A stretch of 64,000 nt of DNA from Planctomycetota bacterium. Its GTDB lineage: Bacteria > Planctomycetota > SZUA-567 > H5-PLA8. Below the pieces are notes generated by a model. The model worked only from the letters and a program-made list of their open reading frames with translations, was not told the origin of the DNA and did not search any database. Location of the stretch: assembly GCA_035628505.1 (NCBI GenBank), contig DASPJR010000088.1, forward strand, positions 30,765-94,764, written 5' to 3'. The position numbers were made by a program, and so were the translations under genes. Positions 12,163 to 48,982 of the stretch are shown here, one piece after another (the stretch's first letter is position 1; every line of letters begins with the position of its first letter).

Positions 12163-12221
12163 CAGTCCCCAAACGCCGCATTATTGCTTAGCCCGTCTTT
12201 CCCGCAGTGGTGTATCTAGTG

Positions 12222-15200: not shown

Positions 15201-15293
15201 GGGCTGCTTCAGGCACTTACGGCAGAGGAGGTTCGCGACTTATTTGCGTACCTGATGCATCCAACGCAGGTTCCGCTTGCAGAAGGGAAGTAG
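12222..15293 (+). CDS. PVC-type heme-binding CxxCH protein (membrane-bound dehydrogenase domain, HEAT repeats, C-terminal cytochrome c)
   Basis: Signal peptide / TM segment, then a beta-propeller-like dehydrogenase region, then HEAT-like helical repeats, then a C-terminal CASCH heme-binding motif. This architecture is typical of planctomycete-type CxxCH proteins. Confidence 0.7.
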   Translation: MMQIRYENTRLVRLLLTAVLAGILGIGVGVNTLAGEFPEIYDTEPDTKTPRLAPLAAAEQFKVPDGFKVTLFAGEPDVRNPVALTWDSRGRLWVAENYTYADRNKKFDRNLRDRVLIFEDADGDGRFDSRRVFTEQVQFLTSVEVGFGGVWLTCSPHLLFIPDANHDDVPDGAPQVMLDGFSIGTDNYHTMANGLRWGPDGWLYGRCGASSPGLIGTPGTSPDKRVPLNGGIWRFHPRTKVFEVLAHGTTNPWGMDWNDVGETFFTNTVTGHFWHLIPGAHFRRSATVDPNPYAYVLMEQHADHQHFANKLLGAEADSHGGGHAHCGLLIYSGDNWPAPYRGRMFTLNLHGRRINSDRIEREGSGYVSRHEADFAFAADLWFRGLELSCGPDGGVFALDWSDVGECHEHNGIHRSSGRIFKIAHGTPKRSESRDLAALSPIELVRLHEHTNEWYCRMARLQLLERARANVKIDAAFPELNRLIEGSAPEPTRIRALCTLNVLGGITHERKRELLRDRSEHVRVWALRFLTDELPLDTVMGRRHPQATDDLRAELLSDLTRAAREDAFGLMRLMLVSAMQRLPHASRKILAEPLLMHAKDASDHNIPIMAWYGLMPLAESAPADLARLGAVCKFPLTRRLIARRLAESIRDDTAPLDILLNAAATDAVVARDVLNGMSEGLQGLRKAPKPARWDALAGKLAADAAVGERVRELSLLFGDGRALDEVKRIALDAEAPLAARRSALQTLIESRPPDLREICENLLQVRFLNATAAKGLALFDDAAIGVKLAKSYRNFHPTDRGSVIETLVSRPTFAVALLEEIGAGRIPRGDLPAFQARQISSFNDESISKRLTEVWGQLREADDEKRQLITGLKTQLTTETLSAGDKSRGRAMYNKVCASCHSLYGEGGRIGPDLTGSGRADLSYLLDNIVDPSAVVGADFRMTIVILTDGRVLNGIVAARTERTLTLQTPTERITIEKSEIKKTRESPQSLMPEGLLQALTAEEVRDLFAYLMHPTQVPLAEGK

Positions 15294-19412: not shown

Positions 19413-22400
19413 TCAGGGAACTGGAATCTCATTGAGTGTGTACGCCGCATGCGGGTTAACAAGGGCGTCGCCGGTAGCGGACTTTACCCCCGCTGCGCCG
19501 ATCATGTAGACTCGATCCCTGATCAGCGCGCCTGTCCGGATCTCGACCGAGCGCCCGTCAGCGGCCACGGCGATCTTTTCAATGCTTAAAGGCATTCGAT
19601 CCAGTTCCGGCGATCCATACGAGCCCGTGTACTCATAGCGGTAGTGTTCGATCGCGTAAGACTCGGGCAGGCCTGCCAGCTTCGCGTCGACGGCTTGTGT
19701 GAAATTCAAGCGGAAGCCCTGGGGCCTTACGTTGATGGAATGAATTTCGAACGGAGTCTGTCCCGTGAAATCGATTCGGAACAAAGCGCCTCGATCCGGC
19801 TGTGCCATCCAGCCGGGTTCGGTGATGCTTCCAACGAAGAGCCGCCCACGTGGATCGAATGCCAGTGTCAGCGGCCCAAGCAGCCCCTTGCCCCAGAACG
19901 GAAAACAGGCACCCTGGTACTCGCCATTCACTTTTTCCAGACTCGCGCGAATGATGGCGCCGCCATACATCAACTCCGCCAGGAAGAATTGGCCCTTGAA
20001 GGGACCGAACTTTTCCCCAGAGTTATAGGTCACACCGTTAATCGAACGCCCCCACGCATACGGCACCCACAGCGCGGTTTTCCCTGGGGGTTTTGTCGCG
20101 TGCTCCTTCTGATCAGGGTTGGGAAAACCGTAGTACCGTCCCTTCACCACATGGCAGAGCTTGTTTGTGGCAACCCATTCGCCCTGGTTGTCTGTGTAGA
20201 AGATTTCGGAGTCCGGTCCGTTGCACCAGCCCAGTGGATTGCGGAATCCAAAGGCGATTTCTTCGGGCTTCTCGCCTGGAATCAGGCGAATTGCCGAGCC
20301 TGATCCGGGAAGCTTGCGATTGGCATACGGCGCAAAACTGATCACCAGGGCACCCGTCTTGTCACGCACAAGGCCATAGCCGTAGTCGTATGTTTCAGCA
20401 ATGCCGTGCGGAAGCGCAAACACACGTTCAAAATTTGTTGCCCTGCCGCCTGTCTCCGTAATGCGTGTCACATTTCGCCGATGAAGTACGTACAATCCGT
20501 CTTTCTCCGCCAGCATCGCATAGACTTCCTGAAACAGCCCGCCCGCGTAGTTTTCGAATTGCGCGCCCTTCCCGTCATCGGCTTGGTCCCGAAGCACGAA
20601 AAGCTCACCGTTCTTCATTGAAGCGACGAAGACACGACCGTCGATGGGGTGAACCGCCACCGCGCCCGGCATCAGCAGATCTTCGCCGGTAACAGTTTTC
20701 GGCCGCGGATAGACAATCGCACGGTATCCGGGGCGTTCGAGCGAGCCGCCAATCGGTCCGGGATCCGGCAGTTGCGGGTAGTTCGTGGGCGGTGGCGACG
20801 CCACGTTTTTCAAGTCGTGCGTTACGCTCTTCACCGGCAAGCCTGACCATTGAATTTCATGCGTCAGTTTGCGAGCCGTGACTCGGAACGTTTCGCTTCC
20901 CTCGATTGATTTCTCTGCATACCGCGCGAGCAGCTTAATGCGCGCGCCATCTGCCAATCGTTCGTACCCAAGCAGTTCGACTGCTTGCGGCGGAGATGTC
21001 AGAGCGTCGATTGCAGACGAGGCTGTGAACTCTGTAAGCGCTACGCCTGCCAACGAGAAAGTGCGTGTGCGCCCACGCACGTTTCTTAAAATCTGCGCAC
21101 CCGAGTACGCTCCGCGTAACTTCAGTGCTCCAATATCGTAAACCAGCAGGTCGTGCGAACCGTACGCCACGCAAATGCTTTCAACGTTCGCTTTGTCCGG
21201 CAAGCGTATGGGAATCTGCGCAACCAGCGGAGGCGCGCCGGCAGGCGGAATGTCAACAGGCACCGCGGGAAGCGGCTTGGGGCTCGGCGCCTCCTTTCCG
21301 AGAGAAAGATAAGCCCAGATCGCTTCCTTCTGCCGAGCCACGTCGCCATCCAGAACAGATTTGATCGTCGCGGGCTGGCCATGCGTAAAGATCTGCGGCA
21401 TGACTGTTCCGGGAACAATGCGTGCAGGCTCGTCCATCCAGCGATCGAACCAATCGCGCCGAATGCGCTGCGTTGTGGTTGTAAGGTCCGGGCCCACCGC
21501 GCCTGGATCGCCTTCGTTCAGCTGCGCGCCATTCCACGTGTGGCAGGAAACACAGGAGTAGCCTTCAAATCCGACCAGCGAGGCGCCCGGTCCGGTCAAC
21601 GTGGGATCAGTTTCCTTCTTAGCCGCCGACGGCGGGCTTACCACGTCACCATCCATCTCAGCAAGCGCCTGAATAATGCTTTCGACATGCGCGCCATAGT
21701 GGGGCATGACGAAGGAGTAACTTTTGTAGCGCACACCGCTCACGCCCTGACGCAAGGCGCTGGAGAGATACTCACGCGTGTACTTCGCCAGCGCGTTGTT
21801 CAACCGCGGCGTTCGCAGGAAGGGAACGGTCTGCAGGAACGCCCCACCCACGGATGCGCTGGCTTCTTCCAGCGGAGGCGGACGATCGTCCACACTGTGG
21901 CAGCGAAAACATCCCAGGCGGCCGATTAACAGCCTGCGATCTTCCACAGGCGATGCATGGCGCTCGCGCGTTGAAACAGATGTGTACGCCACGAGAGCTT
22001 TGCGCGTGGACTCATCCAATTTGAAGCGGACGCTTCCGCTGTCGGAAAGACACCCCGCAACTTTCTCCGGAGTAAGCGGAATCATCTGTTTTTCTGCTTG
22101 AGGCAGCCCCGCGTGACACGCAGCACAACCTTTCGTGCGCAGGAGTGAAATTGCCGCGCCGCTCTTGTCGGGCGCTCCGAGCCTCTTGACCGCCGCGTCC
22201 AGTTCGGCGTCGCTCACAGGAGCTTCCCGTGTGGCAGGCGCGGCCTGTTGCTTGCACCATAGCAACAGATACGCGGCCAGATCACGAGCGGCCTCTGCGG
22301 ACAGCGCGAATTGCGGATGCCTTCCATCCGGGTAGCGGACAATGGGATTCTTCAGGAATTCAGCCAGTTGCGCCGCCGGAAGGCGGTCGGCCAGGCCGTC

Positions 22401-23342
22401 GAAGGATATTCGGTCTACAACCTTCTGCTCCTCTCGCCTGGTCTCAAGATCGTAGTGGCAGGCCACGCATCCGATACTCAGATAAAGCTTTCTGCCGCGC
22501 CGGTGATCGCCTGCCGGGGTCACTGCTGCTTTCGCGCTATTTTCCGTCAGAAGAAAATCGGCAATCAACCGCCGTTCAATGGCGCCATCGCGATCAGGCT
22601 TGAACAAGCTCGGCATTCTTGCTGCAGGGTGCGCCTCTGCTGGATTATTTAAAAACGAAACGAGCCATTCGCGCGAAACACGCGCACCCAGGCCGCTCAG
22701 CGACGGACCGGGTGGCGCATCCTGTAGTGCAGGGAATGCGCCGGCGTGGCACTGTGCGCAGCCGAGTCGGCTCGCCGCGTTGCGCCCTTCCATCGCCAAG
22801 CTATCCAGCCGGACAGTTTCCGGAATTTCCTGCGGCACATGCTTGAACACCCACGCAGGAATTGGTTCGCGCGAAAAGGTTGCGCCCTGCCACCAGAGTT
22901 GCAGACGAGCCGGCACGTTCGCAAGCGAGCGGTAATCGATGCTGATCCGGTAGCGGCCGGCGCGGCGCACAAGAGACTGCTCCGAGCGGACCTGGGCTGA
23001 TTCGCTTTCACCGCGGCCTTTGAGAACCTCATCGCCGTCGATTTTGACGGTCAATTCGCCGCCGACGAAGGCATCAAATAAAAAAGGGGCATCCCCGCGA
23101 AGGACTATCACTCCTTCAAAGGACGCGCTGAATACGCCGGAAGGCAAGCGCGGGTGCGGGCTGGAGTTTCCAAACGAGAACGCCGGCTTCGGCTCGATCC
23201 GCGATACAGTGGCTCCCTCCGGAGATCGATATGTTGCGACGAGCCCAGGCGAAAGTGACTTCGGATTGATCGGCGCAGCATCGCCTGCGTTTGCAGCAGC
23301 AGTTGCAAGCATCGCCAGAATGAGTGTGCAGGTGAGACGCAT
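19413..23342 (-). CDS. Multi-heme c-type cytochrome / PVC-type dehydrogenase (1309 aa, five CxxCH motifs plus a beta-propeller)
   Basis: Signal peptide. CxxCH motifs GCAQCHAG, GCVACHYD, GCAACHAG, GCFRCHSV, CVSCHTW. C-terminal region resembles a sorbosone/glucose-dehydrogenase-like propeller. Confidence 0.7.
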   Translation of the reverse strand: MRLTCTLILAMLATAAANAGDAAPINPKSLSPGLVATYRSPEGATVSRIEPKPAFSFGNSSPHPRLPSGVFSASFEGVIVLRGDAPFLFDAFVGGELTVKIDGDEVLKGRGESESAQVRSEQSLVRRAGRYRISIDYRSLANVPARLQLWWQGATFSREPIPAWVFKHVPQEIPETVRLDSLAMEGRNAASRLGCAQCHAGAFPALQDAPPGPSLSGLGARVSREWLVSFLNNPAEAHPAARMPSLFKPDRDGAIERRLIADFLLTENSAKAAVTPAGDHRRGRKLYLSIGCVACHYDLETRREEQKVVDRISFDGLADRLPAAQLAEFLKNPIVRYPDGRHPQFALSAEAARDLAAYLLLWCKQQAAPATREAPVSDAELDAAVKRLGAPDKSGAAISLLRTKGCAACHAGLPQAEKQMIPLTPEKVAGCLSDSGSVRFKLDESTRKALVAYTSVSTRERHASPVEDRRLLIGRLGCFRCHSVDDRPPPLEEASASVGGAFLQTVPFLRTPRLNNALAKYTREYLSSALRQGVSGVRYKSYSFVMPHYGAHVESIIQALAEMDGDVVSPPSAAKKETDPTLTGPGASLVGFEGYSCVSCHTWNGAQLNEGDPGAVGPDLTTTTQRIRRDWFDRWMDEPARIVPGTVMPQIFTHGQPATIKSVLDGDVARQKEAIWAYLSLGKEAPSPKPLPAVPVDIPPAGAPPLVAQIPIRLPDKANVESICVAYGSHDLLVYDIGALKLRGAYSGAQILRNVRGRTRTFSLAGVALTEFTASSAIDALTSPPQAVELLGYERLADGARIKLLARYAEKSIEGSETFRVTARKLTHEIQWSGLPVKSVTHDLKNVASPPPTNYPQLPDPGPIGGSLERPGYRAIVYPRPKTVTGEDLLMPGAVAVHPIDGRVFVASMKNGELFVLRDQADDGKGAQFENYAGGLFQEVYAMLAEKDGLYVLHRRNVTRITETGGRATNFERVFALPHGIAETYDYGYGLVRDKTGALVISFAPYANRKLPGSGSAIRLIPGEKPEEIAFGFRNPLGWCNGPDSEIFYTDNQGEWVATNKLCHVVKGRYYGFPNPDQKEHATKPPGKTALWVPYAWGRSINGVTYNSGEKFGPFKGQFFLAELMYGGAIIRASLEKVNGEYQGACFPFWGKGLLGPLTLAFDPRGRLFVGSITEPGWMAQPDRGALFRIDFTGQTPFEIHSINVRPQGFRLNFTQAVDAKLAGLPESYAIEHYRYEYTGSYGSPELDRMPLSIEKIAVAADGRSVEIRTGALIRDRVYMIGAAGVKSATGDALVNPHAAYTLNEIPVP

Positions 23343-23512
23343 AGCCGGCCAGCCCCACTCGATTGAGGATTACATCGTGGGGTTGTATTTCCAAAGCGCA
23401 CTCGGCGCAAAGAAAATCATGTGATTCTGCGCTAAACATGAACACGCGCCGTTCATAACGCCAGTACTGCTCTGGGTGAATGCCATTGACGGCGTCGCCT
23501 GGATTGCGCGGT

Positions 23513-24007
23513 TCAGACTGAGATGAGTCTGAGAAGCCAATTAATAACCAGGGCGGCAAGCACCAGCGAGCCCGTGTAGACCTGCAGTCGTCTGGCCCAG
23601 TTCGCCTGCCGCGCGGCAGGGCGACGGTAGAGATAAAAGCGGAAGGGCACCTGTATGACGAAGAAGGCATACAGCAGCAATCCGACGCGGTTGCTTGAAA
23701 ATGAGTGCTCCAGCCGCCCATGCGTTAAGTGCACAAAAGCACGGGTCATCCCGCAGCCCGGGCATTCCGCGCCACACATTTTGCTGATGCACATCGGCGG
23801 CAGTTTATATCTGCCCAGAGATATTTCTTCAGAGTCCGCTTTGCCATTGAGCAGGAATGGCAGCGAGATCATGGCCAGGCTGATCAGAAAATACGTCAGG
23901 TGCGTGGCGCTATCCTGCGGCAAAGCTCTCTCGGGCGAGAAAGCTGCGCGCATCGACGCCGCCAGTCTCGAGATAACAGATGGTCTGCCGAGAGGTATCT
24001 GGTCCAT
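23513..24007 (-). CDS. DUF2752-family small membrane protein, last gene of the ubiquitin-like operon
   Basis: Signature CPGCGMTRAF followed by hydrophobic helices. The ORF-track start (24016) overlaps the E2 stop by 4 nt. An ATG lies 9 nt inside, at 24007. Confidence 0.55.
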   Translation of the reverse strand: MDQIPLGRPSVISRLAASMRAAFSPERALPQDSATHLTYFLISLAMISLPFLLNGKADSEEISLGRYKLPPMCISKMCGAECPGCGMTRAFVHLTHGRLEHSFSSNRVGLLLYAFFVIQVPFRFYLYRRPAARQANWARRLQVYTGSLVLAALVINWLLRLISV

Positions 24008-24012
24008 GCGAC

Positions 24013-24915
24013 TCACGAATTGACCATCACTGCGGGCGCGCAGCGTGTACAGAACATCTGCGAACCTGCGCCGGATTTCACTTTTTGAATGTGCTCAAGG
24101 CATGTGGATTTGCCGCACGCCTGGCACTCCACGATGCAGTCCATGCAGCGGCTGTGTTCGCAGATACTGCAGCGGGCCTGGTGGCGCATGCAGGTTGTCT
24201 GCTGACAGGAGGCGCACTTCATGGCGCATTTCTGACACGTGACTGCCTTGCAGCTCGCGCAGGTCAGCAGCGCGCATTTCAGACAGACGACGGCATCGCA
24301 GAGCTGGCAATGCAGCTTGCAGTTCTCGCAGCAGACGTGGCTGTTCAGACAGACACTCATGCTTTCAGTCGAGCCATTCTTGCCGCAATTGGCGCATGTG
24401 TCGCCAGCGAGCATCTTCCCATCGCTCGACCGGCCGACGGCCTCACCGACGGCAAGCATTGAACCGAAGTCGAACGTGTCCAGGGGCAGCGAGGCACTGT
24501 TCTCTTCGACCCACTTCGCCGCCTCGCCGTTCAATGGGCTCTTCACGTTGTAGGACTGATACGAGAGCATCTCGGCGATGCGTACGATCAGATTTGCCAG
24601 CGATTCGCCGGCCGCCCAGTGATCGCCGATGCAGATCGCATGCGGCGCAATGTTGGGATGAAACACCGGGGTCAGCATCCGGCACTGCGGCGCCAGGCGC
24701 GGGTACGCGGCAGTGAGGTTGATCTCCACAAGGAACGTGTTGCGAATATGGATCTGCCCATCCATTGCTTTTTCGAGCCCTTTGACGAGGTACTCGATCT
24801 GGTACTTTTCAGGCGGATCCCCAAGCGATTTCTTGATGTGTATGCGCGACTTCTGCGTAAACAGTGTGCACAGACGGTCGTAATCGGCCTTCAAGCGGCG
24901 CAGCCTGACGCTCAT
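24013..24915 (-). CDS. Ubiquitin-conjugating enzyme E2 (UBC fold) with a cysteine-rich C-terminal tail
   Basis: N-terminal helix RLRRLKADYDRL. Core YPRLAPQCRMLTPVFHPNIAPHAICIGDHW...SPLNGEAAKW aligns to the eukaryotic E2 HPN-x(5-6)-ICL-x2-W...SPLN pattern, with a catalytic Cys. The C-terminal ~115 aa contain ~27 Cys in periodic C-x2-C / C-x4-C spacing. Its start overlaps the upstream protease stop (ATGA). Confidence 0.8.
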   Translation of the reverse strand: MSVRLRRLKADYDRLCTLFTQKSRIHIKKSLGDPPEKYQIEYLVKGLEKAMDGQIHIRNTFLVEINLTAAYPRLAPQCRMLTPVFHPNIAPHAICIGDHWAAGESLANLIVRIAEMLSYQSYNVKSPLNGEAAKWVEENSASLPLDTFDFGSMLAVGEAVGRSSDGKMLAGDTCANCGKNGSTESMSVCLNSHVCCENCKLHCQLCDAVVCLKCALLTCASCKAVTCQKCAMKCASCQQTTCMRHQARCSICEHSRCMDCIVECQACGKSTCLEHIQKVKSGAGSQMFCTRCAPAVMVNS

Positions 24916-26222
24916 TTTTCGAGCCCCTCGATCGTGTTCGGCATGAAGTACTTTTCCCGCTCAGCGGGGCTGAGCAGCTTTACGAAGCTCGGCGTAGAGA
25001 TGGCGAAGTTGATGCCTTCTGTCGTGGACTTGTCATGTGTCCAGGTGTTTACGCCGACCAGCATTCCGTCGGAAGCGTACAGACCGCCGCCGCTGTTGCC
25101 CTGGTTAATCGGCGTCTGCGTCTGATAAATTTCCATGGACTGATTGCCGAGCTTACTCGTGCGTACGCCGGAGATAATGCCTTCCGTATAGGACCACGAC
25201 AGTGAAACGGGATTGCCTATCGCAAAGACTTTTTCTCCCGGCGACAGCACGCGCGGCGAGATCTGGATGGGCTTGTATTTGTCCAGCGTGAGCGCCTGGC
25301 AGCCCACGATCGCCAGGTCGACTGCCTCATCCCCTGACCATTCAACCACGCCACTGCTTTCCTCGCCGTTATAGAAGACAATGCGAAGATCGCTGTTGTC
25401 CTTCTTGTCTCCGGCTACGTGCTTGTTTGTCAGAATGTAACACTTGCGATCCTGGCTCTTCAATATCACCCCGGATCCGAAACGCATGCCTTCAAGCACG
25501 CCCGCGTTGTTCTTGATAATCACGTTCGCCCGCATGGCATTGGCAGCGGGTGCAGGCATGCTCTGCAATTGCTGCTCTGAAGGCAGGTTTTCATTCAGCC
25601 GCATATCGGCAGTCTGCTGGCTGGCCGTGTGTTTATGGGCGTAGGCAAGGTAAGCGAAATAGAAAATGAGCAGCAGTCCCGGCGCGCCGATGGATGAAAT
25701 TGCCAGCGGCATTCCACTGCGTCTGTTTTCTGGCGTCGTGATAATAACGAGTGCGATCACGCCCAGCACGGTGGCCGCCAGGCACAGCATGATTCCAAGA
25801 ATCACCAGCTTCTGGTGCCCTGCTACTGCTCCCAGCAACCCAATGGCGCTGAGGCCCGCAACAATCGCTCCGGCGACAGCCAACCGGCTCGTGCTGACAG
25901 GGCCCTTGGGCATGAATGAGGCCGCCACATCCTGCGGCGCCTGCCGGGCCGGGCGCACGGGCACTGTAATATTCGCCAGTTCGTCTTCACGAATGACGAT
26001 GTCCGGCTGGGCGTTGCCGGCGGTCGTGCGCACGGCCGTGTCACAGTGATACGACGCGCAGCCCTGCTTGCGGGCCCAGCAGGTGTCGTGATGAATCGCC
26101 CCGCAGTCGTTGCAGAAGCAGACCATCTGGCCAACGTCCACGGGGGCCTGGCAATACGGGCACGTGTTGCCGGAGTGAAACGTATTGGCGACAATCGGCC
26201 GTGATGGTGCGGAGGTCTTCAT
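24912..26222 (-). CDS. C4HC3 zinc finger + transmembrane segment + trypsin-like (S1, HtrA-like) serine protease fusion
   Basis: N-terminal CPYCQAPVDVGQMVCFCNDCGAIHHDTCWARKQGCASYHC. Two hydrophobic helices. A catalytic-domain-like region follows: ILTNKHVAG...DLAIV...GNSGGGLY (Ser nucleophile context GNSGG). Probable start at the internal ATG 26222. The ORF track extends to a GTG at 26297 that overlaps the upstream gene. Confidence 0.65.
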   Translation of the reverse strand: MKTSAPSRPIVANTFHSGNTCPYCQAPVDVGQMVCFCNDCGAIHHDTCWARKQGCASYHCDTAVRTTAGNAQPDIVIREDELANITVPVRPARQAPQDVAASFMPKGPVSTSRLAVAGAIVAGLSAIGLLGAVAGHQKLVILGIMLCLAATVLGVIALVIITTPENRRSGMPLAISSIGAPGLLLIFYFAYLAYAHKHTASQQTADMRLNENLPSEQQLQSMPAPAANAMRANVIIKNNAGVLEGMRFGSGVILKSQDRKCYILTNKHVAGDKKDNSDLRIVFYNGEESSGVVEWSGDEAVDLAIVGCQALTLDKYKPIQISPRVLSPGEKVFAIGNPVSLSWSYTEGIISGVRTSKLGNQSMEIYQTQTPINQGNSGGGLYASDGMLVGVNTWTHDKSTTEGINFAISTPSFVKLLSPAEREKYFMPNTIEGLEK

Positions 26223-26230
26223 CGAGGCTC

Positions 26231-26842
26231 TCAATCGAAGAGAATCATCAAACCCATCAGGAGCAGCAGAAAACCGCTGATCCCGACAGAACACCACACC
26301 AGAGCTTTGAGTGTGGACGGCAGGCGGCGATAGTCAATACCCATGAATTCCTTCTGGTAGATAAGGACTCCGTTGAGTACCAGTGCCAGAGGTGACAGAC
26401 ACGCAGCTGCCGACAGAAGGAACAGGCCGACAACTTTGTTTCGCGCCGCGTTGTACTCTTTGCCCTCATATTCCCGCGTGAGGTACTCTTCTTTGCTCAC
26501 CACATCGCGTGTTTCAAATGACGCGCCGCAGAAGCGGCACTTGAGCGCCTGCCCCTTGATTGTTTTGCCGCATGCCGGGCAGGGCTTCTCGCCAGCCCAT
26601 GCATTGGTGACGGGCAAGCCCTCTGCATGTTTTGTTGTTTTAGGCGTGCATTCACAGCCATAGGCCGAGCAGCCGCCGTTTTCTTTCCAGCACTCCGTAT
26701 GAAATGGAAGGTTGCACGCCGGGCAGTAAACAATGCGTTCGCCGGCAATCACGCCGGTCTGGCAGATCGAACACAGCTTTCCTGCCGTGCTCGTGCCGGC
26801 CTCAAACTCCTTGGGCAAAGCAGCGGGTTCGGGAGCAGACAT
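26231..26842 (-). CDS. Membrane-anchored C4HC3 (RING/PHD-like) zinc-finger protein with an extra C-terminal zinc ribbon
   Basis: CSICQTGVIAGERIVYCPACNLPFHTECWKENGGCSAYGC, then CPACGKTIKGQALKCRFCG, then two C-terminal TM helices. ATG at 26842 (GGGGAGA upstream) lies 7 nt after the upstream gene's stop. Confidence 0.6.
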   Translation of the reverse strand: MSAPEPAALPKEFEAGTSTAGKLCSICQTGVIAGERIVYCPACNLPFHTECWKENGGCSAYGCECTPKTTKHAEGLPVTNAWAGEKPCPACGKTIKGQALKCRFCGASFETRDVVSKEEYLTREYEGKEYNAARNKVVGLFLLSAAACLSPLALVLNGVLIYQKEFMGIDYRRLPSTLKALVWCSVGISGFLLLLMGLMILFD

Positions 26843-26849
26843 GGCTGTT

Positions 26850-27578
26850 CTATCTCCCCTCGGCCGCAAGACGGATCAATGTAAAGACTGCCTGTGAAAC
26901 CAGGGAGATCAGCAGCAGCTTGCCGCCCTTCTTCTTTCCCTGCACCATCCAAACAATCGCCATGATGCAAGCAATGCCGCCGCACAGAATGCCGAAGGCG
27001 ATTTCCGCACCGGTGAGATTCTCATCATCATCAGCCCCCGCCTGGAGCTTTTTCTGCCTTTCGCGATCCACCGGATCCTGGTACTCGCCGCAAAAGCGGC
27101 ACACGCGCGCTTTTTTCTGAATCTGCTCGCCGCACGAGACACATTCTTTTGTGTCTCCAGCAGGAGCCGAAACGACCGTTCCAATGGCTGCGGCGGACGC
27201 CAACTTTGGCTGCGACGGGCAAGCTGGATGCCCGCAGGCACCTGCTTTCTCACGGCAGGCCTGATGCATGGTGCTGCCGCAGCTCTGACAGTTGCAGACG
27301 TCATCGCCCAGTTCGATTGCAACCGAACAGGACGGACAGGTGCGGCCAAGCAGAGCCTTGTTCGCCTTCATGCGTTCAGGGAAAAAGGGCGGGCCGGGCG
27401 GCGGAGGCAGAGACGGCGCGCCATGAGACGGCGTCAGCGCAAGCGGGTCGGCCGTCAACGGCGGTGCGGCTGCAGCAACGGGCTTGGGAAGTTCCGCTCC
27501 ACAGTACATGCAGGAATTGCTTGTGTTGACTGCAACATTCCTGTCGCAGCTCGTGCACCGGACCGTTTCCCTGTTCAT
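26850..27578 (-). CDS. Membrane-anchored C4HC3 (RING/PHD-like) zinc-finger protein with flanking zinc ribbons
   Basis: CTSCDRNVAVNTSNSCMYCG (ribbon), then CPSCSVAIELGDDVCNCQSCGSTMHQACREKAGACGHPAC (C4HC3), then CVSCGEQIQKKARVCRFCG (ribbon), then a C-terminal TM segment. ATG at 27578. Confidence 0.6.
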   Translation of the reverse strand: MNRETVRCTSCDRNVAVNTSNSCMYCGAELPKPVAAAAPPLTADPLALTPSHGAPSLPPPPGPPFFPERMKANKALLGRTCPSCSVAIELGDDVCNCQSCGSTMHQACREKAGACGHPACPSQPKLASAAAIGTVVSAPAGDTKECVSCGEQIQKKARVCRFCGEYQDPVDRERQKKLQAGADDDENLTGAEIAFGILCGGIACIMAIVWMVQGKKKGGKLLLISLVSQAVFTLIRLAAEGR

Positions 27579-27610
27579 TTCCCCTCTCCCCTGCCCCGCA
27601 TTCAAACGTC

Positions 27611-28690
27611 TCAGGCGCCCTTTGTCTTTTCCGAATATTTCAACACGGCTTCGCCGAGTGAAATGACATCGTTGGATTGAAGCACGTACTTGTCGATGGC
27701 CTTGCCGTTCACGAAAGTTCCCTTGCCGCTGCCTTCATCGGTCAGGATGTATTTGCTGCCGGATTTCATGACGGTGGCGTGCAGCGGCGCAATGTCCGGG
27801 TCCTTGAAAAGGTAAATGTCGGACTTGGGAGACGAACCGATCAGCATCGGATTTTTGAAGACAATGAATTGTTTTCCCGTCAGCGGGCCTTTCAGCATGA
27901 GAAACCAGGCTTCCTTGGACAGGTTTTCGAAGAGCCCGATGAAGATGCCAACGAAGAGTGACACCGCAAAGATGCCCACGAATCTGCTCACGGAACCATC
28001 CGAGGCCTGTCCGAGCACAAAGCGGCTGATGGGATCAAAAAACAAACCGCCGATCAGTCCGCCAATCATTCCCCCGACAAAACCATTCAGCACAAGCTTT
28101 TTGGATTTCAGCGCAATCCCCAGCCCCATCCCCGCGCCCATGCTGACGACCGACCACGCGATAGCCCGCCCGCTCATGAAGATGACGAACGACATGCCTT
28201 TTAACGGAAACTCGCCCGGCGCAGGCGGCGCCTGATTGCGCATGAAAGCCACCGCAATCATGGACGTGATTCCGAAGAGAATATCCGCCACGATGGTGGT
28301 CAGCAGGGTGACGACCAGTCCGACGCCCATTCCCACCGCGCCGCAATAGAGCACCTGTTTCCAGTTGCGATTCATCAATCCGTAAACGGTGCCAATAGAA
28401 AGGCCGAGCGCAGCAGCAACCGGCCCGAAGAGGAGATAATCGGAGACGAAGGGAATCCCGCGCGAATGGCCGTGGTCGCCTTCCCTGTTATACGGTTCAG
28501 TGATTGCCCATACCGTCACGCCGCCGATGACCGAAGCCACTGAGTAATAGAAGATCGGGTTGTAGTAAAACGGCGTCTTAACGTCGGCAGTCTGCTGAGC
28601 GGCCTGGGGCTGCACGGAGCGATGCAGCGCCAGCACATCGTCGATGGCCGGGTCGCGCAGATCGTCTTCCGAAATCATGATGTCGGGCAT
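27611..28690 (-). CDS. Polytopic membrane protein with a C-terminal FHA domain
   Basis: At least six hydrophobic helices, followed by GKQFIVFKNPMLIGSSPKSDIYLFKDPDIAPLHATVMKSGSKYILTDEGSGKGTFVNGKAI...LQSNDVISLG. This is the classic FHA pattern (GR/SxxD..L.D..VS..HA.I...Y.L.D.GS.NGTFVNG). ATG with a GGAGAGGAGA RBS. Confidence 0.7.
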   Translation of the reverse strand: MPDIMISEDDLRDPAIDDVLALHRSVQPQAAQQTADVKTPFYYNPIFYYSVASVIGGVTVWAITEPYNREGDHGHSRGIPFVSDYLLFGPVAAALGLSIGTVYGLMNRNWKQVLYCGAVGMGVGLVVTLLTTIVADILFGITSMIAVAFMRNQAPPAPGEFPLKGMSFVIFMSGRAIAWSVVSMGAGMGLGIALKSKKLVLNGFVGGMIGGLIGGLFFDPISRFVLGQASDGSVSRFVGIFAVSLFVGIFIGLFENLSKEAWFLMLKGPLTGKQFIVFKNPMLIGSSPKSDIYLFKDPDIAPLHATVMKSGSKYILTDEGSGKGTFVNGKAIDKYVLQSNDVISLGEAVLKYSEKTKGA

Positions 28691-28716
28691 CGCTTGTCTC
28701 CTCTCCAGCGCCGTGC

Positions 28717-30021
28717 TTATTTCTTGCTGGGAATCGCGCTGCCGCTTGCGGCGGGCGCGGCCTTTTGTTCCTTGCCATACAGAATTTCCAGCGCCCGCGG
28801 CATCTCCTGTTCGAGGATGGGCTTTATGCCAGGGGAAATACGGAGTGCATTTTCAAGAATCCGGCGTGCTGTTTCCTTTTCCAAGTCGCCAAATTTGGAC
28901 GGATCGGCTTCGTACGGCTTGATGATTTCGCTGGCGCGCTGAACGTACAACATCGCCACAGCCGCGCTCAGTTCATCCTGGTGACGTGACGTAGCAGCGA
29001 CGCGCTGGCTGAGGTTCTGCCGCGAATTCATCATCTGCTCGATGTCGTCGCGGAACTTCGTTCGAGATTTGTTGTAGTGCTGCTCCAGCTTCGCCAACTG
29101 ATCCGTAAGTGCTTTAAGCTCGGTTTGTGCGGCGGCGTCACCAGCCTTGACCTTCTCTCCGATGGTCTGCATTTTTTCACGAATTTCCGCGAAGTCGCGC
29201 GAAGCAAGCGCATTAAGCGCGCTGAATTCGACAATGGAATAGATCTCGCTTTCGAGACTGGCCGTCACTTCTTTCCGGATATCCTGCACCGCCTGGTAAC
29301 GGCCCAGCATCAGCCCGCAACCGAGCGCCACCAGCATGAAAATAAGGGTGGTCAGAAAGCCGGGACCGCTTTCGCCGGAGGAATACTGCACGGGGGTGTC
29401 GTAAGTCGCCGCAGGCTGAGCCGAGCGCCCAGCGGAATTCATCGGCTTGGGACCGTCAACTTCAACAGGCTCGGCAATGCCTGTCGCAAGCTTGATCTGC
29501 CGGCTGCCAACCCAGTAGCGGGACAGGGGCACGCTCTTGCCTTCAATCCAGGCAAAGCAGCCTTCCTCATGCTTTTTCGTTTCAATGACGATTGCGACCT
29601 GGTACGGGAGATTGAAGAAGTTCTCCTGGATGAACATGTCCATTCCGGAAAGGAACACGCCGAACCCCGGATGCGTGTGGTACCAGCCGACGATGCGCTG
29701 TTTGGGATATTCCTTGTCTTTGATGCTGTTGATGTGGTCCCACGTCTGGTGCGTGAAGGTCACCTGCGCGCCGTAATTGTTCGAATGAAGCCCTTCGATG
29801 ACCGCGGTGATGCACAGAAAATAACCTTGCGAATCGCGGCACACGTCTCCGATCAGTACGCCGCACAGCTCGACTTCATTGGTCGTGTTCGCGTGGCTTT
29901 TCATCCGCTCATAGGCACGCTCGTCGATGTGCACGCGGTATTCCGAGGCAATCTGTGTCGGAAAGACCGCCTCTCGCGCATCCTTTTTTTCGATATTTGA
30001 ATAGTCCAGAGTCGCGGCCAT
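28717..30021 (-). CDS. JAB/MPN (JAMM) metalloprotease with a TM helix and a coiled-coil C-terminal extension
   Basis: Perfect JAMM motif: upstream Glu (NEVELCGVLIGD) and HTHPGFGVFLSGMD (H-x-H-x7-S-x2-D). TM helix GFLTTLIFMLVALGCGLMLG. C-terminal ~200 aa are helical and charged. Confidence 0.8.
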   Translation of the reverse strand: MAATLDYSNIEKKDAREAVFPTQIASEYRVHIDERAYERMKSHANTTNEVELCGVLIGDVCRDSQGYFLCITAVIEGLHSNNYGAQVTFTHQTWDHINSIKDKEYPKQRIVGWYHTHPGFGVFLSGMDMFIQENFFNLPYQVAIVIETKKHEEGCFAWIEGKSVPLSRYWVGSRQIKLATGIAEPVEVDGPKPMNSAGRSAQPAATYDTPVQYSSGESGPGFLTTLIFMLVALGCGLMLGRYQAVQDIRKEVTASLESEIYSIVEFSALNALASRDFAEIREKMQTIGEKVKAGDAAAQTELKALTDQLAKLEQHYNKSRTKFRDDIEQMMNSRQNLSQRVAATSRHQDELSAAVAMLYVQRASEIIKPYEADPSKFGDLEKETARRILENALRISPGIKPILEQEMPRALEILYGKEQKAAPAASGSAIPSKK

Positions 30022-30052
30022 CGCCGAGGGTCCTCATTAAAAACGGTCATTG

Positions 30053-31264
30053 TCACACGCGAATTTCTTTTCCTACATCACTCTCACGCCACGCTTCACC
30101 CAGCACCGCTTGCGCATCGCCGGAAAACAGATACGAAATGGAACGTTCTCCCTTGCGCGCGGTCACCACGTCAAAGCGCGGCGTTCCGATTTGCTCAAAA
30201 GTCATGTTGTCGATCGGAGCCGGCTCAAGTCCGAGCGTGTGTGTCAGTTCCGGAGCACGCATCTGCCCGCACTGCGGACATTTTCCTTCCGCTTCGGTCG
30301 TCTTCCCCAGTGAACGGAAAACGGGTTCGCTGGTCCCGCAGGCGGGGCAGTTGAGCGCCGTGAGAATATCCCGGCCGAGCTGCAGAACGGTGCCTTCGCC
30401 GAGCTCCGCGCGTGCGATCTTCAGAAGATCGGAGACTCTCATGTCGGCCACGCCAGCCTTCAGCCGCCGGAGATCCTGGTGCGGCTCATGGGCTGCACAA
30501 TCCGGCTTTCGCGTGTAAGCGACGGTGTACGATTCGGCGCTCAGGCCGTGATAAACGAACCCCTTGCCGCTGAGCGTCTCCATTCCATGCAGCAGCTTGA
30601 TAGCTTCCTGCATCTGCACCGCGGAGATAATGCTCGCGGTTGTCGGTGTCGTCGGGACTTTGCCTTCGTTCAGCTGGGTGCGTGTGAGCAGCGCGCAGGA
30701 GCGGCGGTTCTCAAGCATCTTCCAGTCTGTTGCGTTCATCGTACATTCGTAACAGGGGCCCGGCCCCGGCGCGAAAACGCGCGCCACGCCATCAAGCACC
30801 TCAATCGCGCCATCGATCCAGGGTTTTCCCGCAAACAGAGCAGCGCTGTTGATCGCCACGCGAGCCTCCCGATTGTCGAGGCCGCCGAGAATTACATCGG
30901 CCCAGAAATACACTCCGAGCCCAAGGTCATGAACAACGTTGCCGATGAATGGTTGCGCCCTGATCTGCGGATAAAGCTCCCGCGCCGAGCGGCAGGCGAT
31001 CTCGGCTTTGTATTTTCCATTGTCCGATTCACGGAAGAGCGGCGAGCGCGTGAGGTTTGAGTTTTCGATGCGGTCCATATCCGCGACCACGAGGTTGCCA
31101 ATACCGAGCAGCGCGCAATTCTTGACAATCTCATTGCCCAGCGCGCCGGCGCCGATAACAAGCACCCGCGCGTTCCGCAGACGGTTCTGGTCCCACCAGG
31201 AGATGAGCTCAAAGCGGCTGAAGCGGTGCTCTGGAACGGCCTCGCGAATGTTCAGGACGCTCAT
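30053..31264 (-). CDS. E1-like ubiquitin-activating enzyme (ThiF/MoeB/HesA family) with a C-terminal Cys4 extension
   Basis: Rossmann nucleotide-binding motif RVLVIGAGALGNEIVKNCALLGIGNLVVADMDRIENSNLTR. MoeB-like PGPGPCYECT motif. C-terminal CPACG...CPQCG zinc-binding pair plus an extra ~100-aa domain. Its ATG overlaps the Ubl stop (ATGA). Confidence 0.85.
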   Translation of the reverse strand: MSVLNIREAVPEHRFSRFELISWWDQNRLRNARVLVIGAGALGNEIVKNCALLGIGNLVVADMDRIENSNLTRSPLFRESDNGKYKAEIACRSARELYPQIRAQPFIGNVVHDLGLGVYFWADVILGGLDNREARVAINSAALFAGKPWIDGAIEVLDGVARVFAPGPGPCYECTMNATDWKMLENRRSCALLTRTQLNEGKVPTTPTTASIISAVQMQEAIKLLHGMETLSGKGFVYHGLSAESYTVAYTRKPDCAAHEPHQDLRRLKAGVADMRVSDLLKIARAELGEGTVLQLGRDILTALNCPACGTSEPVFRSLGKTTEAEGKCPQCGQMRAPELTHTLGLEPAPIDNMTFEQIGTPRFDVVTARKGERSISYLFSGDAQAVLGEAWRESDVGKEIRV

Positions 31265-31575
31265 GCGCAGCCTCGGCCGGCTTCGTGGACAGCGCGTCCG
31301 CCAGCCGTGATCTCCGGCTGAAGTCGAAGCACATCGCCATCTTTTACGCTGGCGCTCTGCAGCGTTTCTTCATCGAGCAGCTGGCGGCCGCTGGCCTTGT
31401 GGTGGAATTTGTAGCTCATGAGCTGCCCATCGGGACTGTGCCGCGGCAGGTTCATGCGTTCGACAAGCAGCACAATGATGCGGTTCACCGGCGCCGCGCG
31501 CGGCAGATTGACTGTCACCTTCTTGTTGCCGGTGGCATCCCAGACTTCAACATTCATGCCAGCTTCATCTGCCAT
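31261..31575 (-). CDS. Ubiquitin-like beta-grasp protein with a Gly-Gly followed by an 11-residue C-terminal tail (pro-Ubl)
   Basis: Start ATG 31575 with AAGGAG 10 nt upstream. Sequence MADEAGMNVEVWDATGNKKVTVNLPRAAPVNRIIVLLVERMNLP...GQLMSYKFHHKASGRQLLDEETLQSASVKDGDVLRLQPEITAGG|RAVHEAGRGCA parallels the secondary-structure order of ubiquitin. Its C-terminal half mirrors [29 protein letters not shown]. Its stop overlaps the E1 start. Confidence 0.75.
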   Translation of the reverse strand: MADEAGMNVEVWDATGNKKVTVNLPRAAPVNRIIVLLVERMNLPRHSPDGQLMSYKFHHKASGRQLLDEETLQSASVKDGDVLRLQPEITAGGRAVHEAGRGCA

Positions 31576-31613
31576 CTCTGGTGCACTCCTTCTGGTAAGC
31601 GTGTTCAAGGACG

Positions 31614-32684
31614 TTAAAGAGTCTTTATTGCATCAATGGGCCCGGCGAGTTCGCTTTCGGCGACGTACCAGCGGCCTTCTCCCCGAATCAATATTTTTCG
31701 AAATGCGCGCTTTTCGGTCCTGCGAATGACAAGGTAGACAATGGCGAAAATCAACGGGCTGATCACAAAAACAACGATCCAGGAAGGATAGCTCGTAAAG
31801 GTGATGTTTGCCTCGACCATGGCGACGCCACCGTGTTCGCTGATTGACTTCACTGAAGTGAGCTCGGCACTGCGGGCATGGCTGCTCGGACCCGTGAACA
31901 CCGATTTCCAGTACGCCTTGAAAGATTCGACATCCTTTATGTGAAACTGTCCGGCTTGAGATGGGATTTTCGGGTCGTTGAAAGTAAGGCTCGGCACCGG
32001 ACCAATGTTCCGTGCCGACGGAGCCAGACACGCGAACGCGCGCTCCGCGCGGTTGGTCGCAACGGCCGTATAGAAGCCCTTGAAGGCATGATGCGCTGTT
32101 AATGCGCCCGCAATCTTGTGCGTGATACTGTCGTTGTACCAGGACACACACACCGGAATCACAAAGATCAGGGTGCCGAGGATTCCGAATACGCCGAACG
32201 GAGCGCCATTGTCGCCTTTCAGCACGATGCCCGATACGATCGACATCAATGACAGTCCGAGCAGGCCCATGAGGACCTTGGTCTTTGTGGAAAGCAACGC
32301 ACCGGTCAACTCTGCATCGGCTGCCACTGCTTCCGGATTTGCGCTGTATTTTTGAACCTCAGCAACGCGCGCCTCAAGCAGCTGCCGCTGCTGCTCGGCG
32401 TTCAATTCACCTGCGATGGATTGCCGGCAAAGCGGACAGATCGCCGAACCGGCAGGGATCTGTTCGGCACACGCAGGACACTCGGTCATCTGTTGAGCGG
32501 TGACAGGCGGCGAAGAAATCGCGGGCGAATCTCGCAAGACAGCAGGTCCAGGCGAACCTTTGTCATCAGTGGTGCTCGGTGCCGTTAACTCTGCCCCGCA
32601 GACGGCACAGAGAACCAGACCACCGGCATTGAGATCATGTACGCGAAACGTTTTTCCACACTGGCATGAGACAGTAATTGGCAT
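31614..32684 (-). CDS. Zinc-ribbon membrane protein (first gene of the operon)
   Basis: N-terminal CQCGKTFRV...CAVCG and CPACAEQIPAGSAICPLCRQ ribbons, then four or five TM helices, then a C-terminal ~130-aa domain of unknown function. It lies 38 nt upstream of the Ubl gene on the same strand. Confidence 0.5.
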   Translation of the reverse strand: MPITVSCQCGKTFRVHDLNAGGLVLCAVCGAELTAPSTTDDKGSPGPAVLRDSPAISSPPVTAQQMTECPACAEQIPAGSAICPLCRQSIAGELNAEQQRQLLEARVAEVQKYSANPEAVAADAELTGALLSTKTKVLMGLLGLSLMSIVSGIVLKGDNGAPFGVFGILGTLIFVIPVCVSWYNDSITHKIAGALTAHHAFKGFYTAVATNRAERAFACLAPSARNIGPVPSLTFNDPKIPSQAGQFHIKDVESFKAYWKSVFTGPSSHARSAELTSVKSISEHGGVAMVEANITFTSYPSWIVVFVISPLIFAIVYLVIRRTEKRAFRKILIRGEGRWYVAESELAGPIDAIKTL

Positions 32685-32973
32685 ATGAAAAAACCTACTT
32701 TTCTAACAGGGTGCACAGCATTTTTTATATCAATAAATAGACTACTAGTTGCCACAAAGTATTGCAACCACTCAAATATATAGAATAAAAAGTAAACGAT
32801 ACTTTTGTATAAGTTATTGCTATGCAACAGCTTAAGCTTGCGTAACAGGCCAGGCACAAGGCGCTGCACCTTATGCGCGATTGTTTAAGGCAGTCTCGCA
32901 CACTCAATTGCGTAGATTCCTAAGTAACTTTGAATATTTAGTTTTAGGCTTCTACAAAGACCTGCCGAAGTAT
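32685..32973. promoter_or_regulatory. AT-rich (~37% GC) 290-bp intergenic island upstream of the ubiquitin-like operon
   Basis: GC content visibly drops compared with the ~60% flanks, with runs such as ttttttatatcaataaatagactactag and aaatatatagaataaaaagtaaacg. Candidate -35/-10-like hexamers on the minus strand are TTGCAA-17-TAGTCT and TTGATA. It lies between two minus-strand genes. Confidence 0.4.
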
Positions 32974-48455: not shown

Positions 48456-48982
48456 GACGCGGACATCCCCCGCTGCACGCATTCGGAAAGCGACTGATGA
48501 ATACGGTTGAACGCGACATACAGCGCGTTCGCTTCACGCTTGAGCGCGGCGGCGATTTCGCTATACGAGCGCCCTTCGCGGTAGCGCATGGCGATCAGTT
48601 GCTGGTTGAGCGCTGAGAGCTTGCTGACGCAGTTGTGCAGCACGTGCTTGCGCCGCTCCAGCCACGCTTCGTCGCCAAACTGGTCGATCTCGCTGGCCAC
48701 GGATTCGAGCACTGCCGCATCCATCAGCAGCGTGCGGCCGGAGCGTTTGCGGAGGTTGGCCAACGCCACGCGCCGGGCAATGCCGCGCGCCCAGCTGGTG
48801 AACGGCGCTCGCGTGGGATCGAAGTCCGCCCAGCAGCGGGCCACTTCAACGGCCACGTCGCCCAGCGTGTCTTCGGCCAGCTCGGGGTTGTGAACGATGG
48901 CGAAGATGTAGGCCTTAAGCATCGTGCGATGCGCGAGGAATTCGCGAAAAGCCTGCTCTGTATTGGTCTGATTCCCGTTCAC
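48452..48982 (-). CDS. ECF (sigma-70 family) RNA polymerase sigma factor
   Basis: Region 2 (AEDTLGDVAVEVARCWADFD...FTSWARGIARRVALA) and region 4 (LIAMRYREGRSYSEIAAALKREANALYVAFNRI). GTG start preceded by GGAGAGG. Confidence 0.85.
   Translation of the reverse strand: MNGNQTNTEQAFREFLAHRTMLKAYIFAIVHNPELAEDTLGDVAVEVARCWADFDPTRAPFTSWARGIARRVALANLRKRSGRTLLMDAAVLESVASEIDQFGDEAWLERRKHVLHNCVSKLSALNQQLIAMRYREGRSYSEIAAALKREANALYVAFNRIHQSLSECVQRGMSAS

Follow-up and report, generated by a model that had tools for sequence, protein, structure and literature searches.

A predicted membrane-tethered ubiquitin-like conjugation and deconjugation system in a ten-gene operon of a Planctomycetota bacterium

Ten consecutive minus-strand genes of a Planctomycetota bacterium (GTDB SZUA-567; H5-PLA8) encode a ubiquitin-like modifier (Ubl), E1, E2 and RING-type proteins, a JAB protease and several further membrane proteins. 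They occupy positions 23513-32684 of a stretch of 64,000 nucleotides (nt), referred to here as the window, which was taken from contig DASPJR010000088.1 of assembly GCA_035628505.1 (30,765-94,764, forward strand). We consider it fairly probable that this chromosomal operon specifies a complete membrane-tethered Ubl conjugation (E1-E2-RING) and JAB deconjugation system at the cytoplasmic face of the inner membrane, and that it serves the regulated modification or turnover of envelope and membrane proteins and not phage defence. This reading builds on what the sequences show of the domains, of intact catalytic motifs, of anchoring in the membrane and of a conserved gene linkage and order. The chemistry of each step, the membrane topology, the substrates and the role in the cell are all inferred from these.

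Gene content and layout

Read 5' to 3', the operon consists of the genes below, preceded by the AT-rich region in the first line (TM, transmembrane; aa, amino acids).

32685-32973 (289 bp), minus strand: upstream intergenic region, likely the promoter region of the operon; 37% G+C against 57.7% for the operon
31614-32684, minus strand: ZnR-TM, zinc-ribbon membrane protein of 356 aa with two N-terminal zinc ribbons and three TM helices; weak DZR match below the cut-off (2e-4; 21.9 against 27.3 bits)
31261-31608, minus strand: Ubl, ubiquitin-like modifier with a YukD/EsaB-family beta-grasp; Pfam YukD, 1.9e-10; probable start ATG at 31575, which gives 104 aa
30053-31264, minus strand: E1 activating enzyme of 403 aa with a ThiF adenylation domain (1.3e-49), a short crossover loop with Cys189 and, at the C-terminus, a domain of about 140 aa that includes a CxxC...CxxC zinc ribbon
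28717-30021, minus strand: JAB/JAMM metalloprotease of 434 aa with an N-terminal Rpn11-like domain (JAB, 1.6e-13), one TM helix and a C-terminal coiled coil of about 190 aa
27611-28690, minus strand: FHA-TM, polytopic membrane protein (5-6 TM helices) with a C-terminal FHA (phospho-Thr-binding) domain; FHA 1.8e-14 (54.3 bits), Yop-YscD_cpl 4.9e-14
26850-27605, minus strand: RING-A, C4HC3 RING (at residue 90) and zinc ribbons with a C-terminal two-TM hairpin; Prok-RING_1 3e-8 (33.9 bits, cut-off 29.1)
26231-26869, minus strand: RING-B, C4HC3 RING (at residue 33) and zinc ribbon with a C-terminal two-TM hairpin; Prok-RING_1 2.1e-10 (40.8 bits, cut-off 29.1)
24912-26297, minus strand: RING-protease, with a C4HC3 RING at the N-terminus, three TM helices and, at the C-terminus, an HtrA/DegS-like serine protease domain that has no PDZ; Trypsin_2 1.4e-20; probable start ATG at 26222, which gives 436 aa
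24013-24915, minus strand: E2 conjugating enzyme of 300 aa with a UBC core (residues 1-150; HPN at 86-88, Cys95) and a Cys-rich C-terminal domain; UQ_con 8.9e-11
23513-24016, minus strand: DUF2752 protein, a small membrane protein with a conserved CPGCG motif; DUF2752 1.1e-14 (54.7 bits)

The domain identities were established by Pfam profile searches against the curated cut-offs, which are passed by the Ubl, E1, JAB, FHA-TM, two of the RING proteins, the protease domain, E2 and the DUF2752 protein. In addition, a strict C4HC3 pattern is confined to the three RING proteins and absent from the remaining seven products. An initial annotation of the window, made from the sequence and its open reading frames (ORFs), had placed ten co-directional genes at the coordinates at which all ten ORFs are present; the searches bear out the identity that it gave to each of them, including the FHA and trypsin-type protease modules that it regarded as additions to a ubiquitin cassette. 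TM segments are predicted in seven of the ten products, in agreement with its count, on the basis of a crude hydropathy analysis that also underlies all topologies and TM counts given here.

At three junctions, stop and start codons overlap by 4 nt when read from the sequence: ATGA at Ubl/E1, ATGA at RING-protease/E2 and GTGA at E2/DUF2752. The remaining junctions measure +5, +31, +26, +5, -20 and -67 nt when the longest ORFs are taken, and no gap is larger than about 40 nt with the starts of public gene callers (104 aa for the Ubl and 436 aa for the RING-protease). Terminator-like sites are no more frequent within the cluster than in shuffled sequence. The overlaps and the lack of above-chance terminator-like sites make it likely that the ten genes form a single transcription unit, and the stop/start overlaps suggest translational coupling; the earlier description as one translationally coupled operon stands as far as these two features go, and the coupling is retained as a prediction. 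A promoter scan gave no sigma-70-type consensus.

Conservation of the gene cluster

Related loci were collected in a pattern-limited scan of one genome per species, which returned 96 relatives of the E2; 80 loci were kept, and their ORFs were searched using the ten proteins of the window as queries. Of these 80 loci, 45 contain all seven core families in the order Ubl-E1-JAB-FHA-RING(s)-RING-protease-E2, and most of the loci without the full set are cut by contig ends. The order-keeping loci are found in many orders of the Planctomycetota, and in the Verrucomicrobiota, the Riflebacteria, the Sumerlaeota and the Acidobacteriota (Holophagaceae). Because the same order recurs in so many independent loci from several phyla, the clustering of these genes is more than chance. 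A DUF2752 gene follows E2 in 35 of the 45 full loci.

The number of C4HC3 proteins per locus ranges from one to four and is most often two. Among the variant loci L026-L028, L041 and L044, those of the Riflebacteria type have RING-A after E2 and some from Planctomycetia contain extra RING-TM paralogues, while L041 gives a weak match to a second DUF2752 protein. A locus from Anaeromyxobacter (L047) keeps the order, with two ORFs matching FHA-TM and none matching RING-B, and an Aminicenantes locus (L035) is without the RING-protease. ZnR-TM is found upstream of the Ubl gene only in the four closest relatives (L003, L004, L006 and L009) and is therefore regarded as a lineage-specific accessory gene; a relative of it lies downstream of E2 in L044 and L058, and the other loci show at most a weak match.

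The components differ strongly in their degree of conservation. Median identity to the window protein is 71% for the Ubl, 57% for E1, 56% for E2, 40% for FHA-TM, 37% for both JAB and RING-B, 34% for RING-A, and 33% for both the RING-protease and the DUF2752 protein. The Ubl is thus by far the most conserved component across phyla, and the RING proteins are among the least conserved. Eukaryotic ubiquitin systems display the same gradient, in which the modifier is the most constrained and the E3s are the least. The catalytic residues of E1, JAB and the protease and the zinc ligands of the RINGs are conserved over 43-70 homologues per family.

No further gene family is consistently linked to the operon: all-against-all clustering of the flanking ORFs of the 80 loci revealed clade-specific neighbours only. 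A kinase, a phosphatase and an AAA ATPase were considered as core flanking genes and rejected, a Ser/Thr kinase family being found near just 9 of the 80 loci. A subgroup of 11 loci, including Isosphaeraceae and unclassified Planctomycetota metagenome-assembled genomes (MAGs), shares conserved downstream neighbours. The E1 neighbour-joining tree, which has no support values and serves as a rough guide only, is largely coherent with lineage, in that the Riflebacteria, the Isosphaerales and most Planctomycetia are grouped, with some mixing of phyla. Database searches returned more than 3,500 E2 clusters (E <= 1e-20) and 2,885 Ubl clusters (E <= 0.001); the best 120 matches of a search that started from an E2 of the Planctomycetaceae all bear the names of metagenomes and MAGs, and no cultured host is among them.

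The modifier

By sequence the Ubl belongs to the YukD family (41.8 bits, cut-off 27), and the Pfam ubiquitin model stays below its cut-off (14.8 against 25.4 bits). A public protein of 104 aa that is 100% identical to it has been named EsaB/YukD by NCBI, and the Ubl domain of EccD is matched weakly. Its AlphaFold2 (AF2) model is a beta-grasp, and the top Foldseek matches of this model are SUMO, ubiquitin, NEDD8 and the ubiquitin of Caldiarchaeum, of which the last aligns at 26-27% identity, the highest among the top fold matches. The alignment of homologues contains 40 invariant columns, including Lys18 and Lys56, and Lys19 and Lys60 are kept in at least 90% of the sequences.

The conserved part of the family ends in ...LRLQPEITAG, beyond which the homologues carry tails of 0-45 residues; two of them stop exactly at Ala-Gly. 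In the window protein, ...QPEITAG ends at Gly92 and is followed by a tail of 12 residues. Since the conserved sequence stops at Ala-Gly, with variable tails beyond it and two homologues ending there, Gly92 is the predicted activated residue. The homologues keep only Ala-Gly, so the second Gly of the window protein is not conserved and its 'GG' is an accident of its own tail. Judged from the alignment, the combination of an invariant QPEITAG and variable tails is the signature of a processed, C-terminally activated modifier. In the comparison with ubiquitin made by the initial annotation, the Gly-Gly end has to be replaced by Ala-Gly, and the family is YukD, not ubiquitin.

Predicted enzymes of activation, transfer and removal

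The E1 scores 168.9 bits with ThiF, and among proteins of solved structure its sequence comes nearest to the active adenylation domains of UBA7, UBA1, UBA3 and SAE2 (to 7e-25). The crossover loop is short and holds no inserted Cys domain, which is why the structures of MoeB and ThiF match the whole adenylation domain. The motifs GxGxxG, LDNREAR, CYEC and RRSC(189)ALL are conserved over 47 sequences, Cys189 itself in at least 90% of them, and this residue, assigned by position only, is probably the thioester site. The C-terminal domain gives only weak zinc-ribbon matches.

The E2 has the eukaryote-type core that had been read from its sequence. It passes UQ_con (42 bits, cut-off 27), and H86, P87, N88, C95, W100 and SPLNG are invariant over 30 homologues. 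The nearest sequences in the PDB are UBE2A, UBE2B, UBE2N and UBE2C (3e-6 and weaker); with sequence and fold taken together, the closest proteins of solved structure are Rad6, Ubc13 and UbcH5. An AF2 model built from the 30 homologues has a mean predicted local distance difference test (pLDDT) score of 84.7, with Rad6b, UbcH5c and Ubc13 as its best Foldseek matches.

The UBC core is followed in the window clade by a domain (24016-24423, residues 165-300) with 28 invariant or near-invariant Cys and His residues, which would suffice for about seven zinc sites. The model shows this domain as a stack of short hairpins (block-mean pLDDT 81-97 from residue 171), and it has neither a Pfam family nor a sequence relative in the PDB; the lone hydropathy 'TM' call in the E2 coincides with this Cys-rich tail. 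The extension differs between clades. The E2s of eight loci (L037, L042, L055, L057, L061, L070, L077 and L078) have, after the core, a linker rich in Pro and one CPxC...CPxC zinc ribbon, which the database annotates as PF13717, that of a Sumerlaeota locus (L036, 6500-8128) has a long extension with hydrophobic segments at its end, and those of Anaeromyxobacter and the Holophagaceae have no extension.

The JAB protein (50.9 bits) has a conserved Glu and the motif HxHx7Sx2D in 51 sequences. Its nearest solved sequences are Rpn11/PSMD14 (3e-9) and CSN5, followed by the Rpn11-like protein of Caldiarchaeum (1.5e-6) and AMSH. One TM helix is predicted in 49 of the 51 homologues.

The membrane proteins

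The three RING proteins share the same C4HC3 spacing. RING-A and RING-B pass Prok-RING_1, whereas the RING-protease stays below its cut-off (2.8e-4; 21.2 bits against 29.1). No match to the Pfam families RINGv or RING-CH was obtained for these proteins, only Prok-RING_1 and sub-threshold PHD and C1 matches. RING-B and its relatives display the pattern C..C...C.C....H..CW...GC..YGC, and two TM helices are predicted in 65 of its 70 homologues. The protease domain of the RING-protease (75 bits with Trypsin_2) matches DegP and DegS models of NCBIfam at about 1e-30, below their cut-offs, and its His, Asp and the Ser of GNSGGG are conserved in 69 sequences.

In FHA-TM the FHA core and a number of intramembrane motifs are conserved in 55 sequences, with five or six TM helices in the homologues. 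The membrane domain (residues 40-260) corresponds to no Pfam family and contains the conserved motifs WA..EP, GR..AW, NG.VGG..GG..GGL.FDP and SR..G, which suggests that it may be more than an anchor. The C-terminal part of ZnR-TM gives only a sub-threshold SnoaL-like match.

Proposed mechanism

The components can be arranged in a conjugation cycle at the membrane. The membrane-anchored Rpn11-like JAB protein would trim the Ubl precursor and thereby expose Gly92, which the soluble ThiF-type E1 would adenylate and then bind as a thioester on Cys189 of its crossover loop. From there the Ubl would move to Cys95 of the soluble UBC-fold E2. The membrane-bound RING-A, RING-B and RING-protease would dock the charged E2 and promote transfer to lysines of membrane or membrane-proximal substrates, with a recruitment that FHA-TM would make dependent on Ser/Thr phosphorylation, as implied by its FHA domain. 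JAB would also remove the mark. Finally, the RING-protease, whose RING would be cytoplasmic and whose HtrA-like domain is probably periplasmic, would couple tagging at one face of the membrane to proteolysis at the opposite face. The HtrA/DegS-like domain is tentatively placed in the periplasm because three predicted TM helices separate it from a zinc-binding RING that should be cytoplasmic; by the same logic, and equally tentatively, the 190-residue coiled coil that follows the TM helix of JAB would be periplasmic.

This reading is favoured by the sequence and fold neighbours of the components, which are eukaryotic conjugation enzymes throughout (Rad6/Ubc13/UbcH5, UBA7/UBA1, Rpn11/CSN5 and SUMO/ubiquitin/NEDD8). 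Several observations weigh against it. The model of the Ubl is only moderately confident (mean pLDDT 70), and the E2 loop 91-94, which adjoins Cys95, has a pLDDT below 50, so that the model does not resolve the geometry of the active site. An E2-binding ubiquitin-fold domain (UFD) is not recognised by sequence in the C-terminal domain of E1. The homologues of the RING-protease are split between three TM helices (34) and two (28), which makes the periplasmic placement of the protease domain tentative. No kinase that could serve the FHA domain is linked to the operon, the two Ser/Thr kinase genes of the window being about 20 kb away. As the operon contains neither an AAA unfoldase nor a proteasome gene, the HtrA-like domain is the only apparent candidate for degrading what has been tagged. 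Finally, the spread over several phyla and the mixing in the E1 tree are compatible with the horizontal transfer that is typical of defence systems.

A more specific proposal, to which we assign a rather low likelihood, is that the operon is a vertically inherited housekeeping module that spans the envelope, a counterpart of MARCH-type ubiquitylation and of endoplasmic-reticulum-associated degradation (ERAD). FHA-gated tagging in the cytoplasm would then be coupled, within one polypeptide, to a periplasmic HtrA-like protease, and membrane proteins would be removed from both sides. In a bolder variant the membrane-bound E2/RING set might conjugate the Ubl to a lipid head group, e.g. phosphatidylethanolamine. 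In both cases a bacterial lineage would possess an E1-E2-RING-Rpn11 system at roughly the same distance from the eukaryotic enzymes as the archaeal system, and the question of the origin of the eukaryotic ubiquitin system would be reopened.

Alternative functions

The bacterial operons of Ubl, E1, E2 and deubiquitinase genes that have been characterised so far and that conjugate protein are systems of phage defence, and workers in the field expect this of the remaining families too. An antiviral role of the Bil, Bub or CBASS-Cap2 kind would mean that, on infection, the Ubl is put on a phage protein at the membrane, during entry or assembly, or on a host effector such as the protease, upon which the phage is blocked or the cell is killed. 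The phyletic spread and the mixing in the E1 tree would fit this, and membrane-spanning and protease modules are generally known to be common among defence effectors. PADLOC gives weak matches of E1 and JAB to its E1-E2 and JAB models and of the protease to the RT-protease and LmuA models; those of E1 and JAB are generic (1e-13 or weaker), and the E2, the Ubl, FHA-TM, RING-A and the DUF2752 protein have no match in the 2023 release used, which may lack Bil and Bub models. With the NCBIfam model 6A-MBL cap2_3, which has a cut-off of 320 bits, the scores are 40 and 17. Both E1 and E2 keep their catalytic Cys and a DUF6527 domain is absent from the ten genes and their neighbours, unlike in Bub. 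The flanking genes are ordinary chromosomal ones, encoding LysR, LeuA, multihaem cytochrome c proteins, a hybrid histidine kinase and a LamG-like protein, and do not form a defence island; no integrase, restriction or other defence gene is found among the neighbours of the operon in the window. The rigid gene order and the constrained Ubl are unlike what is seen in fast-evolving defence loci, and the shared downstream neighbours of the 11-locus subgroup and the largely lineage-coherent E1 tree also point to a non-defence role. We therefore judge defence to be a minority prospect, well behind the regulated modification of membrane proteins.

The YukD membership of the Ubl raises a different option, namely that the protein acts mainly non-covalently, like YukD/EsaB of type VIIb secretion, and helps to assemble a membrane machine of FHA, RING and DUF2752 proteins, in which E1, E2 and JAB are minor or regulatory. 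YukD is its best Pfam family, its NCBI name is EsaB/YukD, and the EccD match is weak; in type VII systems, too, YukD-like domains occur together with FHA domains and polytopic membrane proteins, and a 2025 paper bears the title 'A ubiquitin-like protein controls assembly of a bacterial type VIIb secretion system' (PMC12637312). On the other hand, a scan of the ten gene products and of 20 neighbouring proteins revealed neither an FtsK/EssC-type ATPase nor a WXG100 substrate. Covalent transfer is favoured by the invariant Gly near the C-terminus and the variable tails beyond it, by the strict co-inheritance of E1, E2 and JAB, and by the intact catalytic Cys residues, and a mainly non-covalent Ubl is in our view improbable. 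A sulfur-carrier or cofactor-biosynthesis module of the ThiS/MoaD-ThiF/MoeB kind, in which the Ubl is thiocarboxylated and not conjugated, would account for the match of E1 to ThiF and MoeB models and structures over the whole adenylation domain and for a modifier that ends in a small residue and Gly. With the ThiF and MoeB equivalog models, all scores fall well short of the cut-offs (117 against 275 and 111 against 449), no rhodanese, thiamin or molybdopterin genes are found nearby, and sulfur transfer leaves the conserved UBC-type E2, RING fingers and JAB unexplained; moreover, ThiS and MoaD are absent from the 50 best Foldseek matches of the Ubl, in which SUMO, ubiquitin and NEDD8 are present. 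This explanation is very improbable and was rejected.

Surroundings of the operon

Past the DUF2752 gene, the downstream intergenic region (23343-23512) contains an inverted repeat, CCCCAC...GTGGGG, without a T-run, which could be a terminator hairpin that the consensus scan does not report. Long plus-strand ORFs over the region (e.g. 29077-30000) were taken as shadows of the minus-strand genes, every minus-strand ORF having a Pfam match.

Further away, large proteins containing cytochrome c are encoded at 19413-23342 (1309 aa) and at 12207-15293 (1028 aa, with DUF7133). On the other side of the operon, a single minus-strand ORF of 4115 aa (34132-46479) is built from dozens of Thr-, Ser-, Gly- and Ala-rich repeats, each about 90 residues long, as in a giant surface or adhesin-like protein, and is preceded upstream by a gene for a FecR-domain protein (46743-48482). 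Two divergent genes for Ser/Thr protein kinases, one of them fused to an FGE-sulfatase domain, are located at 52779-55901 (minus strand) and 55801-58170 (plus strand); at their distance from the operon they are possible but unlinked partners of the FHA protein.

Significance

Full E1-E2-RING E3 cascades are a hallmark of eukaryotes, and the sole prokaryotic one reconstituted so far comes from an uncultured archaeon (PMC5654768), while the bacterial systems characterised so far (CBASS-Cap2, Bil and Bub) are without a RING E3. The operon family described here is abundant and rigidly organised, and its conservation declines between modifier and E3 as it does in eukaryotes. Identification of its substrates would reveal the task of a RING-dependent Ubl system in a cell that has no proteasome, and also whether membrane-protein ubiquitylation predates the eukaryotes.

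Comparison with known systems

With type VII secretion the operon has in common the YukD family of the Ubl, as in YukD/EsaB and EccD, and the co-occurrence with FHA and polytopic membrane proteins. It differs by the lack, at the window operon, of the FtsK-type ATPase and the WXG100 substrates of those systems; to our knowledge, E1, E2 and JAB genes are not part of the known type VII secretion components.

The Bil, Bub and CBASS (Cap2/Cap3) operons resemble the window in combining a Ubl or Ubl-like C-terminus, E1, E2 and a peptidase in one operon, and conjugation chemistry has been demonstrated there. They have no RING E3, whereas the window has three RING proteins and a canonical UQ_con-type E2 that PADLOC does not match. 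Bub forms Ser/Tyr oxyesters and has a DUF6527 protease; in the window family, Cys189 of E1 and Cys95 of E2 are conserved. The CD-NTase partner of CBASS is found neither among the ten genes nor among their neighbours.

In architecture, RING-A and RING-B are like the eukaryotic and viral RING-CH E3s of the MARCH, K3/K5 and Doa10 type and the ERAD-type sets, in which, as is generally known, an N-terminal cytoplasmic C4HC3 RING precedes two TM helices and works with a UBC-type E2 in the marking of membrane proteins. This likeness is architectural, homology not being demonstrated, and the window has no Cdc48/p97 or proteasome partner.

The initial annotation drew a parallel with the archaeal operons of ubiquitin, E1, E2, small RING and Rpn11, which is well supported. 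In the Caldiarchaeum and Asgard operons (PMC5654768, PMC6043591), reconstituted in vitro, the same five functional classes lie in one cluster, and the modifier has a C-terminal extension that is removed by an Rpn11-like JAMM protease, reminiscent of the tail of the window Ubl. The JAB protein of the window is near Rpn11/CSN5 and the Caldiarchaeum homologue, but has an added TM helix and coiled coil. The archaeal modifier belongs to the ubiquitin family and ends in Gly-Gly, whereas the bacterial one is of the YukD family and ends in Ala-Gly. The small RING and the JAB protein of the archaea are soluble; those of the window are membrane-anchored, with two or three conserved TM helices in each RING protein. 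The window family furthermore has between two and four RING paralogues in the majority of loci, and adds FHA-TM, the HtrA-like protease and the DUF2752 protein.

The Prok-RING_1 model is reported to originate from Burroughs, Iyer and Aravind in 2011 (Mol Biosyst 7:2261), and the abstract of that work is said to propose that YukD-like Ubls are conjugated by such operons. The window shares with these operons a Ubl, a ThiF-type E1, a UBC-type E2 with HPN and Cys, C4HC3 prokaryotic RINGs and a JAB protein; the locus itself stems from an uncultured MAG. According to a passage in a 2014 review that cites the 2011 Burroughs paper (PMC4197634), Actinobacteria, Planctomycetes and Acidobacteria 'carry related operons', also referred to as 'uncharacterized ubiquitylation operons', so that the Planctomycetes and Acidobacteria are phyla in common with the loci found here. 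The Caldiarchaeum reconstitution paper likewise mentions, in a remark on bacteria, 'some examples of complete operons' (PMC5654768), and E2 enzymes in Planctomycetes were reported by Arcas, Cases and Rojas in 2013, as cited in PMC5493775. Since these papers describe related bacterial operons and Prok-RING_1 fits two of the RING proteins, this kind of operon is already known from comparative genomics (2011-2013) and is not new, and the novelty implied by the initial annotation was overstated. A full-text search of a limited part of the literature found no experimental work on bacterial RING-containing Ubl operons. The existence of such an operon will not surprise a specialist; as a clean and complete example, the locus offers a well-defined object for experiment, with its substrates and its role as the testable question.

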